A stretch of DNA of 64,000 nt, from assembly GCA_964016885.1 (NCBI GenBank), contig OZ024741.1, forward strand, positions 183,210,001 to 183,274,000, written 5' to 3'. Within the stretch, counting starts at the first letter, position 1, and each line of letters starts with the position of its first letter. A program made the translations under genes and the position numbers. Shown in pieces: positions 24,592-46,305 of the stretch. The notes under the pieces are model-generated. The model had not been told where the DNA came from. It made no database searches and saw nothing but the letters and a program-made list of their open reading frames with translations. This DNA comes from Eledone cirrhosa. Its lineage: Eukaryota.

Positions 24592-26084
<1,493 letters not shown>

Positions 26085-27124: not shown

Positions 27125-27160
<36 letters not shown>

Positions 27161-27170
27161 AACCAGTAAG

Positions 27171-27263
27171 ACCCCGACAGCTGAGCTCAAGCCGTTTCGA
27201 CGGCTAATTCTGGACTAAATGAAAATTATCCTGGTATTTAAATAGCCGATCTTCTCAAGGGGT
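27171..27263 (-). ncRNA. Type I hammerhead, U3-A8 core variant (3' pLTR copy)
   Basis: Same motif as 32750-32843 with a 1-nt deletion in the stem II extension. Confidence 0.75.
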
Positions 27264-28372
27264 AATTCCATATATGGTCAAAGTGATTGTCAAAAATCAG
27301 TAGTAATTCTGTGGTTGCAAATTAGTAGGGGAGATGGTGGCTAAACCTGCCAGTAGGAGAAAGAGGGGAGGGGGTGGAGTAGACCCAATCAAGCGTTGGT
27401 AGTGCCAGCTACAGCTGGGCATGAGGTCAAAGAAGATACAGGGGAGGGGGAGGGGGAGGAAGTCGGAACGGTAGGTAGAACAATGGGGGGTAGAAATAGG
27501 AAAAAAAAAAAAATACTGAGAGTGAAGAAAGGCAAATAAGTGTAAAGAAAAGTAAAGTAAATTAAATTCTACGACCTAGGTGTCAGGCTATTGTTAGGCG
27601 AGAATAAAATAAAGAAAGACTGAAAGAAGTAAAAAAATATAAATAAATGAATAAATAAGGAAATAAGTAAGAGAACTAGGTGGGACGGATTAAGCAAAGA
27701 CCCTTTTAAGAGGTATAAGTACGTAAATGATACGGTGACGGGTCAACAAAAGGGGCCGAAATACTAAAGAGACTACCACGAAATAAACAATAAAGGTTTC
27801 CATCCCGGGCCAGCAACGACCCAGTGCAGCAAAGTGAACTTGTACGAGATAATAATTCTGAGTCCCGAGAAAAATATATACTAAAGCTAACTCTAAAAGA
27901 TCTAAAACAAGCTACATGAAAGTTCGTACGAAATAAAGGTAGAAAACGGAGAAATAAATTCAGAATCCACCCCGCCCAGAAGAAAAGCGAAGCAAGAAAT
28001 ACTGAAACGAAAAAATAAGGCATAAGTGCCACTAAGAAATATAGAGGGCACAGAGAATAGTGGGAGCGGTCGGAAAGAGGGGGCAAGTATCCGGGGTCTA
28101 AGCCAACTGCTATAAAGGGCGGAGTCCGCCAAATCTATCAAAGACTAGGGGAGGGGGGTGGGGGTACTAAGGCTACATGGGGCCAAAGGGCAGCCTCGGG
28201 TGGGCGAGAAAAGACGCCGACAAAGGAGAAGAGCTGGGGTAGAAGGACAAAGGGGAGAGGGGGGAAGGAAATAAAGGAAGCGATAAAAGAATACAAAGAA
28301 GATCTTACGTCTTCCTTGGCAAGCAAGGGTTACCTATTGCAAAATCGGCAACTGGGGTGTTATAGCCCTAGT

Positions 28373-30526
28373 CTACCCCCCCGGGTCATTATGGGGTTTG
28401 AGGGCGAGGTAAGTCCTACGCAATCTATGTTTACATGCAGTAACCAGTTCATCTTTCTTGTTTAGGAGTTGGTCCGTCGAAAACAGCATTTGTAAAGTTT
28501 CCTCCGAGCATAAATTGCACGGACGGCGTCCTCCCGTGTAAGAATTGGCTCTGGACAGTAATCTCCAAGTGAGATCATAGGTGATGTTGTTGTCCTTGAG
28601 GTCCCATATGTGGCCCGAAAGTGTAGTGGCGTGACGCCGGGCCGGGTTTCGGAAGGTATGTCTATGTTGGTATAGCCGGGTCTTGAAGTCACATGCGGTA
28701 AGTCCTATATAGGCTTTGTTGGAGGTATCCGTCCTCACGTTGCACTGGTAGATCACATTACGGTCTCTGCATCTATTGTCGAGTGGGCAAATAGATCTAT
28801 CCGGGCAGTTACACCTCCTGGTCGGTTCTCCACTGCTAATTAGGTTATTTCTGCCATCGGGGTTGAGTTTTTTGTTGTTAGAGGAGACGATGTTTTGTGC
28901 GAAGTTTGGTGTAGTGCTGTAAGAGAGTTTGATGGTATTTTTGTTAATTATGTTGTGGTAGCGGTGTTGTAATGGGAAGTGTTTTTCAATGAGCCTAAAG
29001 AATAGTTTCCCGATGGGAGTAGTCACCTCTGCGTTGTGGGGAGGATTGAACCATGTTACATTGCGTGAGCGGCGGTGTCTCCTGCTGGTTCCGCTAATGG
29101 GAGCTGGACAGTAGGATATTTCCTCCCGGAAACCACTCCGCTTGAGGGCCTGGTTGTAATAAGGCGCATGTTCATCGAATATCCGCTCATTAGCTGACAA
29201 ACGGGATATGCGGAGGGAGATGTTTTTGACCAGGTTGTTTGTGATGTTCCTAGGATGGTTTGATCGGCGGTGGATGTAGTGCAGATTGTCATTAGGTTTC
29301 CTGTATGGGTAGTACAGGTCGTTTTCGAGGTCGAGGGTTACGTCCAGGAAGTTTACTCGGGTCAGGGACGTTTGTAGGGTTATTTTAAATCCCCAGTCGC
29401 GGAAGAATCTGATTAATTGTTTCCGGACCCGATCTGTACTACTGGGGTTGTACCCTTTAAGGGTAAGGAGCCCATCATCACGGTACAATCCACCACCGAA
29501 TGCAGGAAACATATCAGTGAGTTTGGCTATTAGGAATAATCCTATAAGATCAGTGACCTCCGCCGAATCCGTGGCGCCCATGCTGACGTCGAAGGGTGAG
29601 TCGGGAGCTCTTTTTATCCATTTAGAGTCGTCAAAGAGTAAGACTGTCTTCCTGGCGTGGAGGATGATTTTTCTTTCCTGGTCGGTGATGGGCACGAGTG
29701 TTTCGGCGAAGTCCAAGGCGGCAGTAAGTAGCGGTAAGGTGATAGAAGCATAGTAGCTCTCTATGTCGAACTGTATGAATTTAGTTTCTCGTTTATCCTC
29801 CATATTGCTGAACCAGGAGATTACTTCCTGGGTGTTGATCCATAGGCTAAGTCGGGTGTGTTGCTTGACTTTTGGTATCACGCGGTCTAGGATTATTTTG
29901 CTGATTCTCCCTATGTCGGACTTCGTTGGGTTAATAAGCCTGATGGAGGGTTTACGGTCAAAATCGGATTTATGGTCCTTCAGTGTGAAGTATGGTGTCC
30001 GTGGGTCTAGAGGTTCCGTGCGGTCGGCGACCCCGAGGCTGGAGGTGATTTGTTGTCCATCTCGATTTATGTCCTCGATACAAGAGTGGTTGGCCTTTTT
30101 ATAGGTGGAGTTTAGGCTGCTCCTGATCAGTGTGTGGTATCTGTCAGGGTTGACAAAGTATAGGTTCCCAGTTTTATCCGAATGCACCATGATGTCATTT
30201 GTGTTATCATACTCTGTTAAGTTGCTACGGAGTTTTTGTAGGAATCGGTTGTGTCTGGGTTTAAATTTAATGTTCTTGACCAGTTGGAAGAGGTCATTCT
30301 CGAAGGGTGCGAGCAAGGGGTTCAGGGGCGGAGATTTGTAGGTAATAAATCCGAATCTCTCCTTGGTGCCGAAGTCTTGGTTGTCGCAATATCTGTCATA
30401 GAAAAAAGTTCTCCATCTAAGTCTTTTCGCAAATAGATCAATTTTTTGCGTGAGCATCCGAAGGTAAAGTTTTTTCGGTGGGATTGGGATGTTCTTGGTA
30501 GAGAAGTCAATGTTGTGTTTTCGCAT
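28373..30526 (-). CDS. Penelope-like reverse transcriptase-GIY-YIG endonuclease (717 aa from the first ATG; frame open to 30673)
   Basis: FSTKNIPIP..KRLRWRTFF N-terminus, DKTGN, QFDIESYY, MGA, LYRDDG, FLDV, CNC..CPL..C knuckle, VIY..YIG, RLYQH, CNLC..E, NKKDELV..CKH; uninterrupted. Confidence 0.95.
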   Translation of the reverse strand: MRKHNIDFSTKNIPIPPKKLYLRMLTQKIDLFAKRLRWRTFFYDRYCDNQDFGTKERFGFITYKSPPLNPLLAPFENDLFQLVKNIKFKPRHNRFLQKLRSNLTEYDNTNDIMVHSDKTGNLYFVNPDRYHTLIRSSLNSTYKKANHSCIEDINRDGQQITSSLGVADRTEPLDPRTPYFTLKDHKSDFDRKPSIRLINPTKSDIGRISKIILDRVIPKVKQHTRLSLWINTQEVISWFSNMEDKRETKFIQFDIESYYASITLPLLTAALDFAETLVPITDQERKIILHARKTVLLFDDSKWIKRAPDSPFDVSMGATDSAEVTDLIGLFLIAKLTDMFPAFGGGLYRDDGLLTLKGYNPSSTDRVRKQLIRFFRDWGFKITLQTSLTRVNFLDVTLDLENDLYYPYRKPNDNLHYIHRRSNHPRNITNNLVKNISLRISRLSANERIFDEHAPYYNQALKRSGFREEISYCPAPISGTSRRHRRSRNVTWFNPPHNAEVTTPIGKLFFRLIEKHFPLQHRYHNIINKNTIKLSYSTTPNFAQNIVSSNNKKLNPDGRNNLISSGEPTRRCNCPDRSICPLDNRCRDRNVIYQCNVRTDTSNKAYIGLTACDFKTRLYQHRHTFRNPARRHATTLSGHIWDLKDNNITYDLTWRLLSRANSYTGGRRPCNLCSEETLQMLFSTDQLLNKKDELVTACKHRLRRTYLALKPHNDPGG

Positions 30527-30711
30527 GGTGCGGGTGAAATGAATTGAGCTTAGCGGAAAAGTCTGGATGCGGCGTGGTAGGGTCGGAAAGTGCTCTACTA
30601 CGGGAGTAGGAGCTAGATAACGAAGGAAATGTGGTAAGGAACCAGGTGGACCATAACGCACCAAAGTACTCAATACTTGAGGTAGTAGAGTGGGTAATAG
30701 GAACCAGTAAG

Positions 30712-30805
30712 ACCCCGACAGCTGAGCTCAAGCCGTTTCGACGGCTAATTCTGGACTAAATGAAAATTTATCCTGGTATTTAAATAGCCGATCTTCTCAA
30801 GGGGT
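30712..30805 (-). ncRNA. Type I hammerhead, U3-A8 core variant (5' pLTR copy)
   Basis: Exact reverse complement of 32750-32843. Confidence 0.75.
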
Positions 30806-32478
30806 AATTCCATATATGGTCAAAGTGATTGTCAAAAATCAGTAGTAATTCTGTGGTTGCAAATTAGTAGGGGAGATGGTGGCTAAACCTGCCAGTAGGA
30901 GAAAGAGGGGAGGGGGTGGAGTAGACCCAATCAAGCGTTGGTAGTGCCAGCTACAGCTGGGCATGAGGTCAAAGAAGATACAGGGGAGGGGGAGGGGGAG
31001 GAAGTCGGAACGGTAGGTAGAACAATGGGGGGTAGAAATAGGAAAAAAAAAAAAATACTGAGAGTGAAGAAAGGCAAATAAGTGTAAAGAAAAGTAAAGT
31101 AAATTAAATTCTACGACCTAGGTGTCAGGCTATTGTTAGGCGAGAATAAAATAAAGAAAGACTGAAAGAAGTAAAAAAATATAAATAAATGAATAAATAA
31201 GGAAATAAGTAAGAGAACTAGGTGGGACGGATTAAGCAAAGACCCTTTTAAGAGGTATAAGTACGTAAATGATACGGTGACGGGTCAACAAAAGGGGCCG
31301 AAATACTAAAGAGACTACCACGAAATAAACAATAAAGGTTTCCATCCCGGGCCAGCAACGACCCAGTGCAGCAAAGTGAACTTGTACGAGATAATAATTC
31401 TGAGTCCCGAGAAAAATATATACTAAAGCTAACTCTAAAAGATCTAAAACAAGCTACATGAAAGTTCGTACGAAATAAAGGTAGAAAACGGAGAAATAAA
31501 TTCAGAATCCACCCCGCCCAGAAGAAAAGCGAAGCAAGAAATACTGAAACGAAAAAATAAGGCATAAGTGCCACTAAGAAATATAGAGGGCACAGAGAAT
31601 AGTGGGAGCGGTCGGAAAGAGGGGGCAAGTATCCGGGGTCTAAGCCAACTGCTATAAAGGGCGGAGTCCGCCAAATCTATCAAAGACTAGGGGAGGGGGG
31701 TGGGGGTACTAAGGCTACATGGGGCCAAAGGGCAGCCTCGGGTGGGCGAGAAAAGACGCCGACAAAGGAGAAGAGCTGGGGTAGAAGGACAAAGGGGAGA
31801 GGGGGGAAGGAAATAAAGGTAGCCTTAGTACCCCCACCCCCCTCCCCTAGTCTTTGATAGATTTGGCGGACTCCGCCCTTTATAGCAGTTGGCTTAGACC
31901 CCGGATACTTGCCCCCTCTTTCCGACCGCTCCCACTATTCTCTGTGCCCTCTATATTTCTTAGTGGCACTTATGCCTTATTTTTTCGTTTCAGTATTTCT
32001 TGCTTCGCTTTTCTTCTGGGCGGGGTGGATTCTGAATTTATTTCTCCGTTTTCTACCTTTATTTCGTACGAACTTTCATGTAGCTTGTTTTAGATCTTTT
32101 AGAGTTAGCTTTAGTATATATTTTTCTCGGGACTCAGAATTATTATCTCGTACAAGTTCACTTTGCTGCACTGGGTCGTTGCTGGCCCGGGATGGAAACC
32201 TTTATTGTTTATTTCGTGGTAGTCTCTTTAGTATTTCGGCCCCTTTTGTTGACCCGTCACCGTATCATTTACGTACTTATACCTCTTAAAAGGGTCTTTG
32301 CTTAATCCGTCCCACCTAGTTCTCTTACTTATTTCCTTATTTATTCATTTATTTATATTTTTTTACTTCTTTCAGTCTTTCTTTATTTTATTCTCGCCTA
32401 ACAATAGCCTGACACCTAGGTCGTAGAATTTAATTTACTTTACTTTTCTTTACACTTATTTGCCTTTCTTCACTCCCA

Positions 32479-32512
<34 letters not shown>

Positions 32513-32749
32513 CCTATTTCTACCCCCCATTGTTCTACCTACCGTTCCGACTTCCTCCCCCTCCCCCTCCCCTGTATCTTCTTTGACCTCATGCCCAGCT
32601 GTAGCTGGCACTACCAACGCTTGATTGGGTCTACTCCACCCCCTCCCCTCTTTCTCCTACTGGCGGGTTTAGCCACCATCTCCCCTACTAATTTGCAACC
32701 ACAGAATTACTACTGATTTTTGACAATCACTTTGACCATATATGGAATT

Positions 32750-32843
32750 ACCCCTTGAGAAGATCGGCTATTTAAATACCAGGATAAATTTTCATTTAGT
32801 CCAGAATTAGCCGTCGAAACGGCTTGAGCTCAGCTGTCGGGGT
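32750..32843 (+). ncRNA. Type I hammerhead, U3-A8 core variant (inverted pLTR copy)
   Basis: ACCCC-TTGAGAA-GATCGGCTA..TAGCCGTC-GAAAC-GGCT-TGAGCTC-AGCT-GTC-GGGGT. Confidence 0.75.
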
Positions 32844-32958
32844 CTTACTGGTTCCTATTACCCACTCTACTACCTCAAGTATTGAGTACTTTGGTGCGTT
32901 ATGGTCCACCTGGTTCCTTACCACATTTCCTTCGTTATATATATATATATATATATAT

Positions 32959-33122
32959 ATAACGAAGGAAATGTGGTAAGGAACCAGGTGGACCATAACG
33001 CACCAAAGTACTCAATACTTAGGGTAGTAAAGTGGGTAATAGGAACGAGTAGGACCCCGACGGCTGAGCTCAAGCCGTTTCGACGGCTAATTCTGGACTT
33101 AGCCGTCGGGGTCCTACTCGTT

Positions 33123-33128
<6 letters not shown>
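32959..33128 (-). mobile_element. Miniature second insertion of a sister Naiad subfamily with a short inverted tail
   Basis: 32961-33099 matches 30619-30757 with about six substitutions; 33102-33128 is an inverted copy of its own interior; (TA)n on both sides. Confidence 0.85.
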
Positions 33129-39129: not shown

Positions 39130-40390
39130 TTGAGTCGGCGTCGCCAGGTTGGTGGGGCGGTGCTATCCTAGGTACGTTACGAGGTAGGTATCGTTGGATT
39201 TGCCATTGATATCAGCTTGTTCCGCCTTGGATTCATAGGTATGTTCTGGCATATCGTGGTCCGCTGCATGCTCCCCACCTGGCATTCTCTTACCGGTAGG
39301 GCCTTAGAAAGATTCATCCGGTATCACTAAAGTGGATAGCGTGCATTTACGTTGGTGTCTGCAGGCCATGATCTCAGCTTGACTGCGTCGCCCTTTAGTT
39401 TGACTATCTCCATAGCCTCGGACAGGCACAACTTGCACCTCCACTCGCCAGGCGAGTACGCATTCGCGTGCTGGACCATACTCCAGCTGAGGTCAAACTC
39501 CGTGCCACTGTCTTTGAGTCCCCATATTAGGTCCACCAGTCTAGTAGAGTGTCTCTTGTTCCTGTCTTTGAAAGAGTTCTTGTGATTGTACATCCTCGAC
39601 TTAAAAGTCGTGGATGTTGCCCCAATGTAGGTGCGCCTATCATTTTGCGTGGTAACCACACATCTGTAAACAACGCCCTTTGTCAGCGCCATTCCCTGCA
39701 GAGGGCACGGTTCACCTACACGGCAGTTGCATGTCCGTGCGTCATTTTTGTCGTTCCCTTTATGTGGGCCTGAAGTCTTATTTGGGTTCCCCCTGGTCCT
39801 CATGTGGTGTTCCGGCAGGGTGGTGGACTCATTGTTCACCACCTGCTGGTCTCTGCCGTCAGGTGTTGTGTCCTCCACGTCCACATCTCCGCCCCCAGGA
39901 ACATCTACAGAACCACTAGCCATTTCCCCAAGCGGTCCCCCCCCCCGGTGTGCCTGAGGCCTGTAAAGTTTGGTGGTGGGGTGCCCTCATTTTCATTGCG
40001 TTGGCCTTGGCCATGTAGTCTGCCATGTTGGGTGACGTGGAAAAGGAGAACTTCACGGTGTGGCGGTTGAATAGTTTGTGGTACCTGTGGGATACCGGGA
40101 AACACGCATCCAATGCCCTGAAGAAGAGGCCTGGTACGTTAGTGCATACATGCTTCGAGTATGGTACATTGAACCATGTTATGTTTCTACAACTATTCTT
40201 ATTTCGTCGTCTGCTACTTGTAATGTTTGCAGTGTCGTGTTGTCTTCTCGTGTTGCGCTCTATTCCTATTTGATCCTCTATTCTATCTCTATGCTTAGAA
40301 CTACTATTTATGTCGGGAGAGAGGCATTCGCTTACTATGACACGTTTACTAGCCCTAGTTTTCATCCCCGTCCTGCTACCCGAGTATCCC
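39130..40390 (-). mobile_element. Truncated, frameshifted second Naiad-type Penelope element
   Basis: RNITWFNVPYS..HRYHKLFNRHTVKFSFSTSPNM; CNCRVGEPCPLQG..VVYRC..YIG..FKSRMYNH..CKLCLSE. Confidence 0.88.
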
Positions 40391-41034: not shown

Positions 41035-42871
41035 ATGGCGGAAAAGATGGCAGACATGTCTGCCATTAGCTCTGCCACGCCCCCCAAGTCTGAAGAACAA
41101 AAAATAATTACAACAAAATTAGACATTGAAACAAACAAACAAAATGAAAAAACAAATGTTAAGGAAAATGAGCAAACAGAAAACAAACAAACAGAAAATA
41201 ATACAAATAACGACAGGGCAACTTTCGCCCAGAAAACAAAGCAATCCATTACATACACACCAATTGACCTAACTGCCGCCAGAGAAAAACTGGCCGAAGC
41301 AAAGAAACATATTGTTTTGGGAGAGAACGGAATGTTTTCCATTAACTCCCCCCCAGAATTCAAGAAAGCCAGAGAAGAAAACACAGTTATATACAGAACT
41401 ATACTAAACCAGTCAAGAAAGCCAGCACAGCCCAGCCAAATGGAAATAGAGTTAGTCCTAAAAGACTATATGAAGAATATTCTCTTCATACGAAAGGACC
41501 GACTCTATGGCAGCATTTCGGTCCTAACAAGAGACAAAGAAACGGCGGTTCAGCTTTCCCTAAGCCCACTCTCGTCGACAACATATAGCTTCTATCCCTC
41601 CTACATGGGTAGAAGAACACAGAGGGTAAAAGTAAAAACAATGCTGCCCACAATGGACTTCTGGTGGGCTATTGCTGGCTTCATTGATATGGGCGAAGAC
41701 ACTATGCTGTCAATGGGGAAGGCAACTGGAGATGCGTTCCTGGGAATGGGCCTCGACATACTAGTCCAAATGAGGCCCGAAAGAATAGCACAAATCCCGG
41801 ATCGCATCTGGCTGGATGACCTTACCCCAATAGACATAATTGTAGAGGGGAGAAGACCAGCATGCTATTTATGCATGGAAAGGGGACACGTTAAGGCTAA
41901 CTGCCCGAAACGTATCCCCCAAAAAGGACTATTGCCCACACCCACCACAAACAGTACACCAGCACCACCCACCTCCAAAAATACACTAATACCACACACA
42001 GCAAACAAAATACAGACACCACCAACCACAAACACAACACAAACATCACCACCACCAGCACCAAACACAAGCACGACACAAAAATCACCACCACCAACCA
42101 CAACACAAACATCACCACCACCATTACCAACCACAAGCACGACACAAACATTACCACCACCACCACCACAAAACCCATTCCAAACAAATAATAAAAAAAA
42201 CAGTAACAAATCTACCCCTCCCGCAAAAAAAAAAACAACCACACAACACGTCCCTCCCACCTAGCGCTGAAGAGTTTCCCCCAACTTCTGAAGAAGAAGG
42301 AGGAGAAGCCTTCAGACAAGTTAAAAGAAAAAAAAGAAAACACACACCCAGCACACCACAAATAACCCACACACAAACACCAACTCCAATCAAAAACACC
42401 CCACCCTCAACAAACAAAAATAAATCTGCGCCTCCCCTCTCCGAAACATTGACAGCATCACAAAAAAAGACGTTGCAATACACATATATAAATAAAGAAA
42501 ACAAAAAACTGGTTAAATTAATAAACAATAACCCTATGGTGCAGACCGAAGGGCCAAACTTTATCTCAACAGAGAACTTCACCCATTTAAAAATGATAAA
42601 GGTCCCTCTGGACCTTTATCGTTCCTTAAAAGAACAATTTAGACGGGACGTGAGCCCCCCCTGTTTAAAACCGTTGAATCGCGTCCTCTTGAAAGATTTC
42701 CCCATAACCGCCCCTCTCCCTGACACAACTCCAAATACCCCAACCCCACCACACACGTGTACCCCCACACCACCACAAAACATCCCTCCACCCAACACAC
42801 CTGATGCCATGGAAATTACGCAACCCGGAGAGGTAAGTGCTTTTCTTTCTTCACTTTCAACACCAAAATAG
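41035..42871 (+). CDS. ORF1 Gag-like protein with one CCHC knuckle; split by a 1-nt frameshift, probably in an A-tract near 42193-42235
   Basis: CYLCMERGHVKANC; Pro/Thr-rich region; the +1 frame continues open (EEEGGEAFRQVKRKKRK...) into ORF 42449-42871. Confidence 0.75.
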
Positions 42872-42876
42872 ATCAA

Positions 42877-45800
42877 TTGAGAGTTGGCTGTTTGAACGCG
42901 CGTGGCCTGAGCTCAGCTTGGAAGCAAGCAAAGCTTCTAAGTGACCTCAGGTCACAAAGTATAGATGTGATGGTTGTTTGCGAGAGTCGGATCAGCAGCG
43001 TGAGACAGCTGGCGCCCGCCTTCGATGACTTTGAGATGCACGCATCTCTCTGTCAACCCGGAGGCGGGGGGGGAGTTGCCGTACTGCTGGATAAACGTCT
43101 AACTCTCGACGTACAGATTGTTCACTCGGACCCGGGGGGTCGATTACTGGTGCTGGACGTCGGAGGTGGTGAAGGCGGGGCTTTCAGACTGGTCGGTCTT
43201 TATGCTCCCTTCGGGGCGGAGAGAGCCGACTTCTTCCAACGTCTGGAGACTTTTCTAGGAACGTCGCGTTCCCTGCTTTTAGTGGGGGACTGGAATGGAA
43301 TCCTAGATGCGCGTTGGGACTATGCAGGGGCATGTCCCGATAGAGGGGGGTGTAGCAGCCTCAAGGGGTTGCTCGATCGATTCGACCTGGTCGATAGATT
43401 TCGACTAGATTGTCCAACTGCGCCAACCTGGACCTGGGCAAACCGCAGTGGACAATCTAGATCGTACCTAGATAGGTTTTTGGTTAGGAGTAAGGATAGG
43501 GACGTATTTAGTTGTCCAGAACTGATCATGGTTGGCTATTCAGATCACAAATTAGTGACCTGCGTGGTCAACCTTGATAGAACGCATAGACAGGGTCCCG
43601 GTTACTGGAAGATGAACTTGTCCTTACCGACAAAGAAAGATTACAGAAACCGGATTAGTAGCTTAGTTAAGATGCGGTTGACGGGAGCGATCGTCAACAG
43701 TAGGTGGTGGATATCTCTAAAGAGAGAGATTAGAGTAAGTTCGATAGGTTACAGTAAGGAACTTGCGGCGAATAGAAATAGGAGGGAAAGGGAGTTAACA
43801 GATAAACTAGAAGAGGCGATTAGGAGCGGAGACGTAGCCAGAGTGTTAGCGACGAGAACGGCATTGAGCCAGTTCTTTGACACGAAGCACGAAGGCTGCG
43901 TTGTCCGAAGTAAAATACGTGCTTTAGGAAACGAGGGGACCAAAGCTGTTAGCTGGGCCCGCGTGACAGAAGCCAAGAGTGGGATTAAATCCACCATTCG
44001 GTCTTTGCGAGACCAGGATGGACGGGTGATCCTTGAACCTGAGCGAATGTGCGAGACCTTTCAAAGGCACTTTGCTCGACTGTTCGGAGGTGGCGGGGGG
44101 CCGGACGGGGATGTGGACTTCGGTCCATACCTCGACGGTCTACCGCGTCTTTCGAGCGGCGAAGCGGAGTGCTGCGAAGGGCCAATCACAGCCACTGAAA
44201 TCGGGGAAGCGCTCAGCCAATGCAGCAGACGCAAATCCCCGGGTCTCGATGGTCTACCATACGAACTTTATTTAGCTATGCCGGTCTTGTTCTCCGAACT
44301 CCTCGAGGCTGTCTATTGCAACTGGCAACAGAACGGGAGAATTCCCTGTTCTGTGACCAAGGGCGTGGTCACGCTAGTGAGGAAGGACGAGAGCAAGGGG
44401 GACGACTTAAGTAACTTTAGGTCCATAACTCTGCTGAATGCAGAGTTACAGATTTTGGCCAAGGTGTTGGCGAAGAGGTTGGCGCTTGTGGTGGGTGGTT
44501 TGGTGGGAGACGCGCAGACATGCGCTATCCCGTCCAGGTCCATTCACGACAACCTCCACCTCATGCGATACATCATAGAGAGGGTTGGCTACGAACCCGG
44601 CTTTGGTGGGGCCCTGATCAACTTGGATCAATCTAAGGCGTTCGATAGGGTCGACCATGGTTACCTGGATGCGGTGCTAGCGGCGGCGGGCTTCGGACCC
44701 GTTTTCAGGGGCTGGATTTCTGCCATGCACAGTGGCAACATCTACTCTAGGATTAAAGTAAACGGCTACCTCTCGGAGCCGTTTCAAATCACCCGATCCA
44801 TCAGACAGGGGTGCCCCCTCTCCTCCCTTCTGTACGTATTGACTCTCGAGCCACTGCTGCGGAAGTTGGAGTTGCTGCGGGGCATACCCCTGGAACCGGG
44901 ATTGCACAAAGCGGTCTCGGCCTATGCCGACGACGTAACAGTAATGGTGGCGGACGCCTCGGAAATCGGGGCGATCGCCACCCTACTGGAGGAATACGAA
45001 AGGCTGACGGGGGCTAAGCTGAACCAGGACAAGTCAGTCGGTTTGCAACTCGGAACGTGGAGGGGCAAACCGATGCCGTTAGACGGTGTCGTCGGGCGGT
45101 GGACGGAGGGCCCGGTGAAGCTGCTCGGGGTCTGGTTCGGACCGGACCTCCAGGTGGAGAAGAATTGGGGCGAGGTGACGAGCAGGGTGTTTGCGCTGAC
45201 CCAGAAGTGGGCCAAGTGCAAACTATCACTGAAAGGTCGGGCGGAGGTGACGAACGCTTACATAGCGTCCGTCATCTACTACCGCCTGACCGTCGTGCCT
45301 TGCCCCAAGGAAAAGCTCACCATCATGGAACGCATGCTCTTCCAGTTCCTCTGGAAGAAGCGGCCTCCCATGGTGAGGAGATCCATCTGCTGCCAGCACC
45401 CTTCGAAAGGAGGGCTGGGTATGCCGTGGCTGTTGATGCGTAGGCACGCATTGAGGCTACGGCATCTACAGGTATTCCTCAACGGTCAGCCGGTGTGGGC
45501 CCCGTTTGTGAGGCGAGCCTTCCCACAGCTCGTCTCGCTCACCGAACTGCAATCCTGGGTGAAGCAAAGACCGAGAAAACTGGGCAACTGGCACACTGAG
45601 TGTGCCCAGGCGCTCACGGCTATCTGGCAAGCGGACCCGACTGTCAGTAGAGAATCCACCTCAACATTCTATAGAGGGTTGGTGGCTAGCAGGGGCGACG
45701 ACACCCTTGGAGAGTCGCTAGGCATGGAGGAGGACGAACTGGCCAGCCTGTTCGGTAGAACTTTCGGCCCGGGACCCATGGACAACTTCCAGAGGTCCCT

Positions 45801-46305
45801 AGCCTGGCAGTGTTACCGGGGGGCTCTGCCCGTTCGAGAAAAGCTCTACAGACACGGGCGCCCGGGCAGGGATCCCGCGAAAAAGATCTGTCCCAGATGC
45901 GTGCGCGACGAGGAAACCGTTGCGCATGCACTGGTACACTGCCCGGGCGTTGCCGATCTGTGGGGCTACGTCGAACGACTGCTGTCGCGTGTGGCGCCGA
46001 TTCGATTAACCGCCGAGTCTGTGGTGAACATCAAGCCGCCTCCTCCCTTCAGAAATGAAGCAGAGGCGGTCTTTCTGTGCGTAATAGCCATGATGAAAGA
46101 GGTTGTGTGGTGGACGCGCCTGAAAGGTCTGAGGTCGGGTGACTTTCTCTCCGGCCATCACCTGGTTTACTTCTTCCGATACCACTTCGGAAGAAGAATC
46201 AGGATGGAGAGAGAAGTGCTTGGTCCCAGACAGTTTTATGAAAGGTGGGTGAAAGAAGCGAGAATGGCCCGTGTAAATGGGCCTTCTCTCTACATTGTTC
46301 TGTAG
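42877..46305 (+). CDS. ORF2: AP endonuclease + reverse transcriptase + C-terminal CCHC finger (1142 aa, intact, no AUG start)
   Basis: LNARGL, GDWN, SYLDRF, SDH (APE); KSPGLDGLP, LDQSKAFDRVDH, RQGCPLS, YADD (RT); CPRC..ETVAHALVHC. Confidence 0.95.
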   Translation: MRVGCLNARGLSSAWKQAKLLSDLRSQSIDVMVVCESRISSVRQLAPAFDDFEMHASLCQPGGGGGVAVLLDKRLTLDVQIVHSDPGGRLLVLDVGGGEGGAFRLVGLYAPFGAERADFFQRLETFLGTSRSLLLVGDWNGILDARWDYAGACPDRGGCSSLKGLLDRFDLVDRFRLDCPTAPTWTWANRSGQSRSYLDRFLVRSKDRDVFSCPELIMVGYSDHKLVTCVVNLDRTHRQGPGYWKMNLSLPTKKDYRNRISSLVKMRLTGAIVNSRWWISLKREIRVSSIGYSKELAANRNRRERELTDKLEEAIRSGDVARVLATRTALSQFFDTKHEGCVVRSKIRALGNEGTKAVSWARVTEAKSGIKSTIRSLRDQDGRVILEPERMCETFQRHFARLFGGGGGPDGDVDFGPYLDGLPRLSSGEAECCEGPITATEIGEALSQCSRRKSPGLDGLPYELYLAMPVLFSELLEAVYCNWQQNGRIPCSVTKGVVTLVRKDESKGDDLSNFRSITLLNAELQILAKVLAKRLALVVGGLVGDAQTCAIPSRSIHDNLHLMRYIIERVGYEPGFGGALINLDQSKAFDRVDHGYLDAVLAAAGFGPVFRGWISAMHSGNIYSRIKVNGYLSEPFQITRSIRQGCPLSSLLYVLTLEPLLRKLELLRGIPLEPGLHKAVSAYADDVTVMVADASEIGAIATLLEEYERLTGAKLNQDKSVGLQLGTWRGKPMPLDGVVGRWTEGPVKLLGVWFGPDLQVEKNWGEVTSRVFALTQKWAKCKLSLKGRAEVTNAYIASVIYYRLTVVPCPKEKLTIMERMLFQFLWKKRPPMVRRSICCQHPSKGGLGMPWLLMRRHALRLRHLQVFLNGQPVWAPFVRRAFPQLVSLTELQSWVKQRPRKLGNWHTECAQALTAIWQADPTVSRESTSTFYRGLVASRGDDTLGESLGMEEDELASLFGRTFGPGPMDNFQRSLAWQCYRGALPVREKLYRHGRPGRDPAKKICPRCVRDEETVAHALVHCPGVADLWGYVERLLSRVAPIRLTAESVVNIKPPPPFRNEAEAVFLCVIAMMKEVVWWTRLKGLRSGDFLSGHHLVYFFRYHFGRRIRMEREVLGPRQFYERWVKEARMARVNGPSLYIVL

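Follow-up and report, generated by a model that had tools for sequence, protein, structure and literature searches.

How Penelope-like elements (PLEs) regenerate their pseudo-LTRs (pLTRs), and what part their hammerhead ribozymes play, are both stated as open questions in accounts of these retrotransposons (PMC2377424, PMC8557442). The proposal that ligated RNA circles template those PLE copies that exceed one unit dates from Cervera and de la Pena in 2014 (PMC4209133), and the elements they describe resemble the one analysed here in carrying type I hammerheads in pLTRs around 3 kb apart, opposite-strand ribozyme pairs, a palindromic loop III and the U3-A8 core, a described PLE hammerhead variant present in Schistosoma Cercyon elements. 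The element differs from those PLE hammerheads, as presented in PMC4209133, in having a 6 bp helix III and a catalytic fold predicted for the monomer.

The Hydra clade, which includes Hydra-1_Obim, is characterised in the relevant sections of Craig et al. 2021 (PMC8557442) by a single ORF whose GIY-YIG endonuclease (EN) is C-terminal, RW(K/R) and DKT motifs, a CxCx5C linker, CxxC and CxH motifs around conserved E and N residues, insertion into (TA)n targets and a hammerhead near the 3' end, all of which recur in the element described below. The two differ in unit length, 3.54 kb as against 'generally <3 kb', and in the ribozyme, a U3-A8 core with a loop II of ~39 nt, where all Hydra entries listed in File S2 have canonical CUGANGA cores and short loops; for Hydra-1_Obim itself the length given is 2,507 bp, with a different ribozyme and 'no pLTR'. 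Naiad elements, as treated in the same source, share with the element their pLTRs, inverted 5' copy, tail and (TA)n preference, but have an N-terminal EN, a CxC domain and a DKA motif, and are described without a canonical hammerhead.

The window analysed here is a 64,000-nt stretch of Eledone cirrhosa DNA (contig OZ024741.1, positions 183,210,001 to 183,274,000), and the feature under study is, judged from its sequence, a two-armed insertion, young and intact, of a Penelope-like retrotransposon from the Hydra clade (Table 1). Positions within it are numbered such that +1 is the first base past the predicted GUC cut and -1 is the C of GUC. An earlier, sequence-only reading had described a 1.3-mer of a 3,541-nt unit with ribozyme copies 3,541 bp apart and pLTRs differing by about one indel, and measurement agrees: the main arm comprises 1.317 units, the GUC cut sites lie at 27176|27175 and 30717|30716, and the direct repeats 27156-28281 and 30697-31819 differ by a single indel (an extra base at 30767), the sole mismatch nearby sitting at the edge, outside the repeat. 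The boundaries it proposed, 27157..31819, were too narrow, as the insertion extends into an inverted arm with a third hammerhead. At 98% identity, this arm differs by two substitutions and by its T run, which is longer; at the indel it has the allele of the 5' pLTR. The insertion tails, at +20 in the main arm and +103 in the inverted arm, lie in (TA)n, within which a target-site duplication is unreadable. Nor is a pLTR of >1.1 kb 'unusually long', as had been suggested: among 48 full-length single-unit copies passing the upstream junction, the upstream part has a median of 702 nt and is at least 1,106 nt in 15. A 105-aa frame in the pLTR had no Pfam match and was treated as incidental.

Table 1. 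Features of the two-armed insertion and its neighbouring mini-insertion; coordinates are window positions.
Feature	Position	Strand	Remarks
Main arm	27156..31819	-	4,663 nt (1.317 units); begins at -1106 in the upstream copy and extends to +20 beyond the downstream cut; ends in (TA)n
3' pLTR	27156..28281	-	One-base deletion in ribozyme loop II, unique to this pLTR among the copies compared
Hammerhead A	27171..27263	-	Type I with a U3-A8 core, UUGAGAA; cut predicted at 27176|27175
Cut-to-cut unit, 3,541 nt	27176..30716	-	Predicted monomer or circle
ORF, 717 aa	28373..30526	-	RT then GIY-YIG; uninterrupted
5' pLTR	30697..31819	-	Truncated upstream copy
Hammerhead B	30712..30805	-	Predicted cut between 30717 and 30716; likely transcription start inside loop II
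Likely promoter	30757..30786	-	TATA-like TATTTAAA at 30786-30779 (-70..-63); initiator-like TTAGT at -43..-39
Inverted arm	31819..32941	+	-1001 to +103; head-to-head with main arm, 1-nt overlap; ends in (TA)n
Hammerhead C, in inverted arm	32750..32843	+	Predicted cut after 32838
Separate two-armed mini-insertion	32956..33127		Sister subfamily (95% identical); local example of the -41 stop

The neighbouring mini-insertion consists of an arm from -41 to +103 on the minus strand (33099-32956) and an arm from about -7 to +20 on the plus strand; with the inverted arm it forms a 302-nt tail-to-tail palindrome (32798-33099), one (TA)n tract being common to both. Elsewhere in the window are 305-nt inverted repeats, 96% complementary and 838 nt apart, around a (CA)n run (24637-26084); a broken remnant of another PLE, with 33% identity across 145 aa and again with a CxCx5C linker and a GIY-YIG at the C-terminus (39327-40365, minus strand); and a two-ORF non-LTR retrotransposon with a 409-aa zinc-knuckle ORF and an unbroken 1,111-aa endonuclease-RT ORF (41035-46305, plus strand).

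The uninterrupted ORF claimed previously was recovered (30526 to 28373, minus strand). Searches of Pfam and of PDB sequences with the 717-aa product gave no match; 2,045 homologues at E<=1e-10, with near-whole-length coverage, were found among 7,996 scored candidates, and 91 of the 120 homologues listed were aligned with it. Its structure model (pLDDT 92) has TERT 3du5 as top fold match. RWR (37-39) and DKT (117-119) are followed by the RT motifs at 253-351, including motif A D254 and YRDD (348-351), and then by the CxCx5C linker (572-580; C572-C574-C580), GIY-YIG (591-608), CxxC (670-673) and CxH (698-700, C698-H700), making the endonuclease C-terminal. The last two motifs surround the conserved E676 and N689, and the cysteines of all three are invariant in the 91 homologues; T of DKT is kept in 86 of the 91, and the final residue of RWR is K in 64 and R in 24. 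Lack of a CCHH motif and lack of an IFD are further criteria of the Hydra clade; in the 717-aa product no cysteines lie between the GIY and YIG motifs, which may bear on the first.

Hence the label 'Naiad-type' given earlier does not fit: the RT precedes GIY-YIG, the only CxC is the C-terminal linker at 572 rather than a domain between EN and RT, and the motif is DKT, where Naiads have DKG changed to DKA. The domain order, motifs and (TA)n insertion are instead those of the Hydra clade. Since a canonical hammerhead and a length generally under 3 kb appear in PMC8557442, in the sections concerned, as descriptions and not as strict criteria, the element, with its U3-A8 core and 3,541-nt unit, is filed as a Hydra variant. 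Ahead of the ORF, one upstream AUG at +63 (30615-30654, minus strand) begins a short reading frame whose end lies close to the site of priming at +103, and the main frame has ~67 stop-free codons before its first Met.

The ribozyme has the three helices of a type I hammerhead, with stem I ACCCC/GGGGU, the core UUGAGAA giving U3-A8 as its 3-8 pair, stem II (G10.1-C11.1) with its ~39-nt loop, GAAA, a stem III closed by the palindromic loop, and GUC as the NUH triplet. A search of Rfam gave no hammerhead family match, and there is no CUGANGA core within the element. Helix probabilities are 0.69-0.99, 96% of helix cells are paired, and the catalytic fold is predicted for the monomer; dimeric PLE hammerheads were reportedly described by Lunse et al. 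in 2017. In relatives, the free position 7 varies between G and U and one stem III pair shifts between G-U and G-C, with no two-sided (compensatory) helix change among 9 close relatives, which counts against the circle reading discussed below. One locus, L131 (G000:C2:356029785-356032022), comprises seven tandem 299-nt units, each +1..+221 plus a shortened complete hammerhead (deletion -61..-42), and is a retrozyme-like derivative of the window element's family.

The claim of recent activity is supported by the absence of substitutions in 960 unmasked pLTR sites of the window copy, against a family mean of 88 in 25,370 (0.35%), and by the stop-free frame of at least 778 aa kept in 26 of 57 near-full-length copies. 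Contigs of independent runs contained no piece bridging the empty site and were uninformative on polymorphism.

Across the genome (G000, 3.0 Gb), insertions of the family consist of two arms placed head-to-head, one beginning +20 and the other +103 from the cut. Exact matches number 34,004 for -23..+6, 16,463 for +5..+20 and 20,327 for -41..-24, dropping to 4,673 for -48..-27; there are 2,860 for the 5' core and 155 for the junction continuing into the ORF. The ratios are rough since the patterns tolerate different subfamilies. The short forms include 5,113 mini-palindromes with a centre of <=110 nt. In 53 that were scored, mostly from the first 50 listed and with one locus counted twice, the +20/+100-103 tail pair occurs in 41, and arm ends peak at -41/-40 (29 of 106) with none past -45, even though arms of greater length would have matched the pattern. 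Contigs of independent runs likewise contain head-to-head joints, at about -31..-45. An origin of the palindromes as assembly artefacts was considered and rejected on account of these independent joints and of arms that differ in tail and alleles.

The -41 end coincides with motifs expected of a promoter. Upstream lie TATTTAAA and TTAGT, which we take to be TATA-like and initiator-like, respectively; the A of the latter, which is TCAGT in relatives, is position -41 itself (30757). A bacterial promoter scan, of a type inapplicable to the window's DNA, was blank. When the base ahead of -41 is not T, it is G in 45, C in 47 and A in 8 of the first 100 of 7,042 matches, scored by eye, C being also the templated base of the sister subfamily. 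This G could not be supplied by the opposite arm in 23 of 29 distinct contexts (29 checked of the 45), and at three loci, L277-L279, it is found on both arms. Untemplated G has been reported as the mark of a copied cap in L1 and SVA (PMC4859970), and the extra G at -41 is likely to be one as well. Transcription is thus likely to start at -41 with a cap, a position within the upstream ribozyme's loop II, in which case the RNA 5' end would lack the ribozyme's 5' half and hold the 3' half only. A simple picture of a transcript with two complete ribozymes is therefore likely wrong; pairing between the separated halves is predicted to give the catalytic fold.

A second end falls at the cut site. 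Palindromes whose centre is very short number 204, and among the first 50 listed, scored by eye, 26 have both arms ending at +1: 15 have untemplated bases between the arms and 11 are blunt, the latter being also explicable by a 2-nt CG overlap at -1/+1. In the mini-palindrome set unselected for a short centre this class amounts to 3 of 53, and both arms end at +1 in all three, which suggests one template for both arms. Furthermore, +1 is joined to a downstream position in three mini-insertions (L146, L206 and L207), and at a single locus genome-wide -42 is joined to an end at exactly -1, an end-to-end jump from the -41 end to the cut 3' end. The pile of cDNA ends at +1 may reflect self-cleavage at GUC, and these ends and joins likely record cutting in the germ line. 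At L146 (G000:C1:424501325-424501371), an identical, precise +161 to +1 junction is present on both arms, twice on one, and fits a 161-nt circle closed at the cut site.

Long copies behave differently from the short forms. Full-length arms were counted at all loci among the first 100 of the 155 junction-into-ORF matches, giving 59 (50 scored together, six arrays, L135 twice and L208) after omission of 15 loci that are mini or rearranged, one diverged fragment and seven arms whose ends fall at +19..+88. Of these, 57 pass -45, two stop at ~+1 and none stops at -2..-45. The opposite arm also passes -45 in 39 of 43 full-length copies, as against 23% genome-wide, and 14 of 57 have no opposite arm. 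No indel marks the cut-site junction in any of 48 single-copy or 20 array junctions (68 in total). As none of the 59 arms stops at -41, their template lacked the -41 end; a linear RNA begun at -41 cannot yield long copies without a further step, whereas a ligated circle does so in one.

The favoured reading, to which we give a probability of roughly 0.55, is that the template of the longer-than-unit arm was an RNA circle of 3,541 nt, produced when hammerheads cut the RNA and its ends were ligated. The sequence-only reading had cDNA running more than once around a circular or tandem template; this is indirectly supported by the 57 of 59 arms that pass -41 with no junction indel, but a linear tandem transcript from -41 is disfavoured. 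Under the circle reading, the enzyme would nick both strands of the (TA)n target and prime at two points, +20 and +103, using one RNA for both or two RNAs of one kind. If the RNA is linear and capped, both cDNAs would run off at -41 and be joined into the thousands of mini-palindromes, while on RNA cut at the upstream site they would run off at +1. That upstream cut would need a 5' ribozyme half from the downstream pLTR, from another RNA or from a read-through transcript, the first of these amounting to a long-range split hammerhead that would also hold the RNA ends together. RNA cut at both sites and ligated would have no end, such that both arms could be long and one could exceed a unit, regenerating the pLTR and promoter.

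A bolder version, which we hold to be doubtful, is that by placing its promoter within its own hammerhead, the element has ribozyme halves at opposite transcript ends assemble across 3.5 kb, decap the RNA and close the circle, which would be the only template for promoter-bearing copies. If so, the ribozyme would be a switch from mRNA to replication template, and the three insertion classes would be a genomic record of capped, cut and circular RNA.

An alternative that needs no circle, possible although the odds are against it, is strong-stop strand transfer, likened to that between retroviral R repeats: cDNA from the capped end (-41) or cut end (+1) would anneal to the identical stretch of the downstream pLTR and continue, with mini-palindromes arising from short RNAs lacking a 3' copy. 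The transcript would be terminally redundant, and a homology-guided jump from the capped end to the downstream pLTR would leave the same scarless junctions. Jumps by the element RT at RNA ends are indeed seen, in about a dozen mini-insertions joining -30..-44 or +1 to +161..+545 and in mini-tandems, -44..+213 and -30..+197 among them. They imply short RNAs with ends at +161..+545, oligo-A being present in one; and of 8 loci that have lost part of loop II, 2 have -41 as the right breakpoint of the deletion. Yet transfer would have to be near-perfect on long RNAs, given the 57 of 59 arms that pass and the 39 of 43 copies with both arms long, and to allow almost no mis-registration (8 loci against 4,673 arms), and in this scheme neither the +1 pile nor the conserved ribozyme has any part in making long copies.

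Improbable, by comparison with both, is copying of an uncleaved linear RNA that arises by read-through of tandem arrays or from host promoters, with priming at a copy further downstream (Frangieh et al. 2024). Arrays of 2-4.5 units exist, and the Anolis results, in the portions of PMC11167929 concerned, favour such a template. Two loci also lean towards linear templates: L147 reads through its first junction but ends at +1 of the second, as expected of a linear RNA on which the 3' copy was primed, and in array D a rare allele at -30 is common to the 3' unit and inverted arm but absent from the upstream units, a pattern that one circle would not predict and that counts against a single circle. 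Against read-through, RNAs started by the element would end at a -41, where none of the 59 full-length arms stops; single-unit copies far outnumber arrays; copies would shrink every generation; and PMC2377424, in the passages at issue, notes no obvious mechanism of pLTR regeneration. It is very improbable that the -41 and +1 piles are merely RT stalls or hairpin deletion points beside a passive ribozyme, for although both points lie in or beside helices and blunt cut-site palindromes have the CG overlap, this is opposed by the extra G at -41 (on both arms at three loci), the TATA- and initiator-like motifs at the expected spacing, the untemplated bases between arms ending at +1 in 15 of 50 palindromes and the failure of full-length arms ever to stall at -41.

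The arrays themselves, which reach ~4.5 units, were considered as proof of rolling-circle copying and rejected in that role: in arrays C, E and F derived SNPs are common to neighbouring units but missing in a terminal unit, and arrays A and B have one alternating SNP each. Such unit-sharing patterns point to later DNA duplication, conversion or assembly effects. In a three-way comparison of pLTR SNPs, 50 of 54 sites were singletons, two favoured the 3' and inverted copies together and two the 3' and 5' copies, a neutral balance. Several loci have unusual structures. At L033-L034 (G000:C1:91489170-91492741), ~65 tandem copies of a 55-nt ORF piece, attributable to repeated RT slippage or DNA expansion, form the 5' end of an array of 4.5 units and directly precede its inverted arm; both arms of L135 (G000:C3:300641122-300649554), an 8.4-kb head-to-head insertion, exceed one full unit; and at L208 (G000:C2:214084612-214088597) one internal deletion is common to both passes of the main arm and to the inverted arm.

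A literature search found neither cap-marked starts within a PLE ribozyme nor cutting in vivo described, and no in vivo test of the circle idea for PLEs, most subscription papers being outside its coverage. The locus structure is that of a textbook PLE unit, and both its architecture and the circle idea are already in print. As described in the parts of PMC3846280 and PMC2377424 concerned, Adineta Pen and D. virilis Penelope similarly have two direct pLTRs with an adjoining inverted one, a one-sided tail and TATA/Inr-like motifs in the pLTR. PMC3846280 there proposes self-priming on an antisense template, whereas the extra sense-orientation G at -41 in the window family points to a capped sense template. 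Retrozymes are treated as PLE derivatives in the account of animal non-LTR retrozymes (bioRxiv 10.64898/2026.07.22.740005), a further likeness to the family.

The Anolis PAc Poseidon element (Frangieh et al. 2024, PMC11167929), in the sections bearing on insertion, resembles the window family in having two internal initiation sites that define the tail, in the cutting and extension of both target strands and in AT-rich targets, the tail being 30-40 nt as against 83 nt here. Ribozyme mutants had no effect on its insertion in vitro, no reads began or ended at the cut in the experiments reported in that part of the study, and an unprocessed multi-copy RNA is favoured; these findings count against the circle reading. 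What this family adds to the described systems is the cap-like G, the likely start inside loop II and the count of 0 in 59 full-length arms stopping at -41. These countable footprints, with the coordinates -41, +1, +20 and +103, a young copy that is intact and a ribozyme whose predicted fold is monomeric, make the choice between circle and strand transfer testable.
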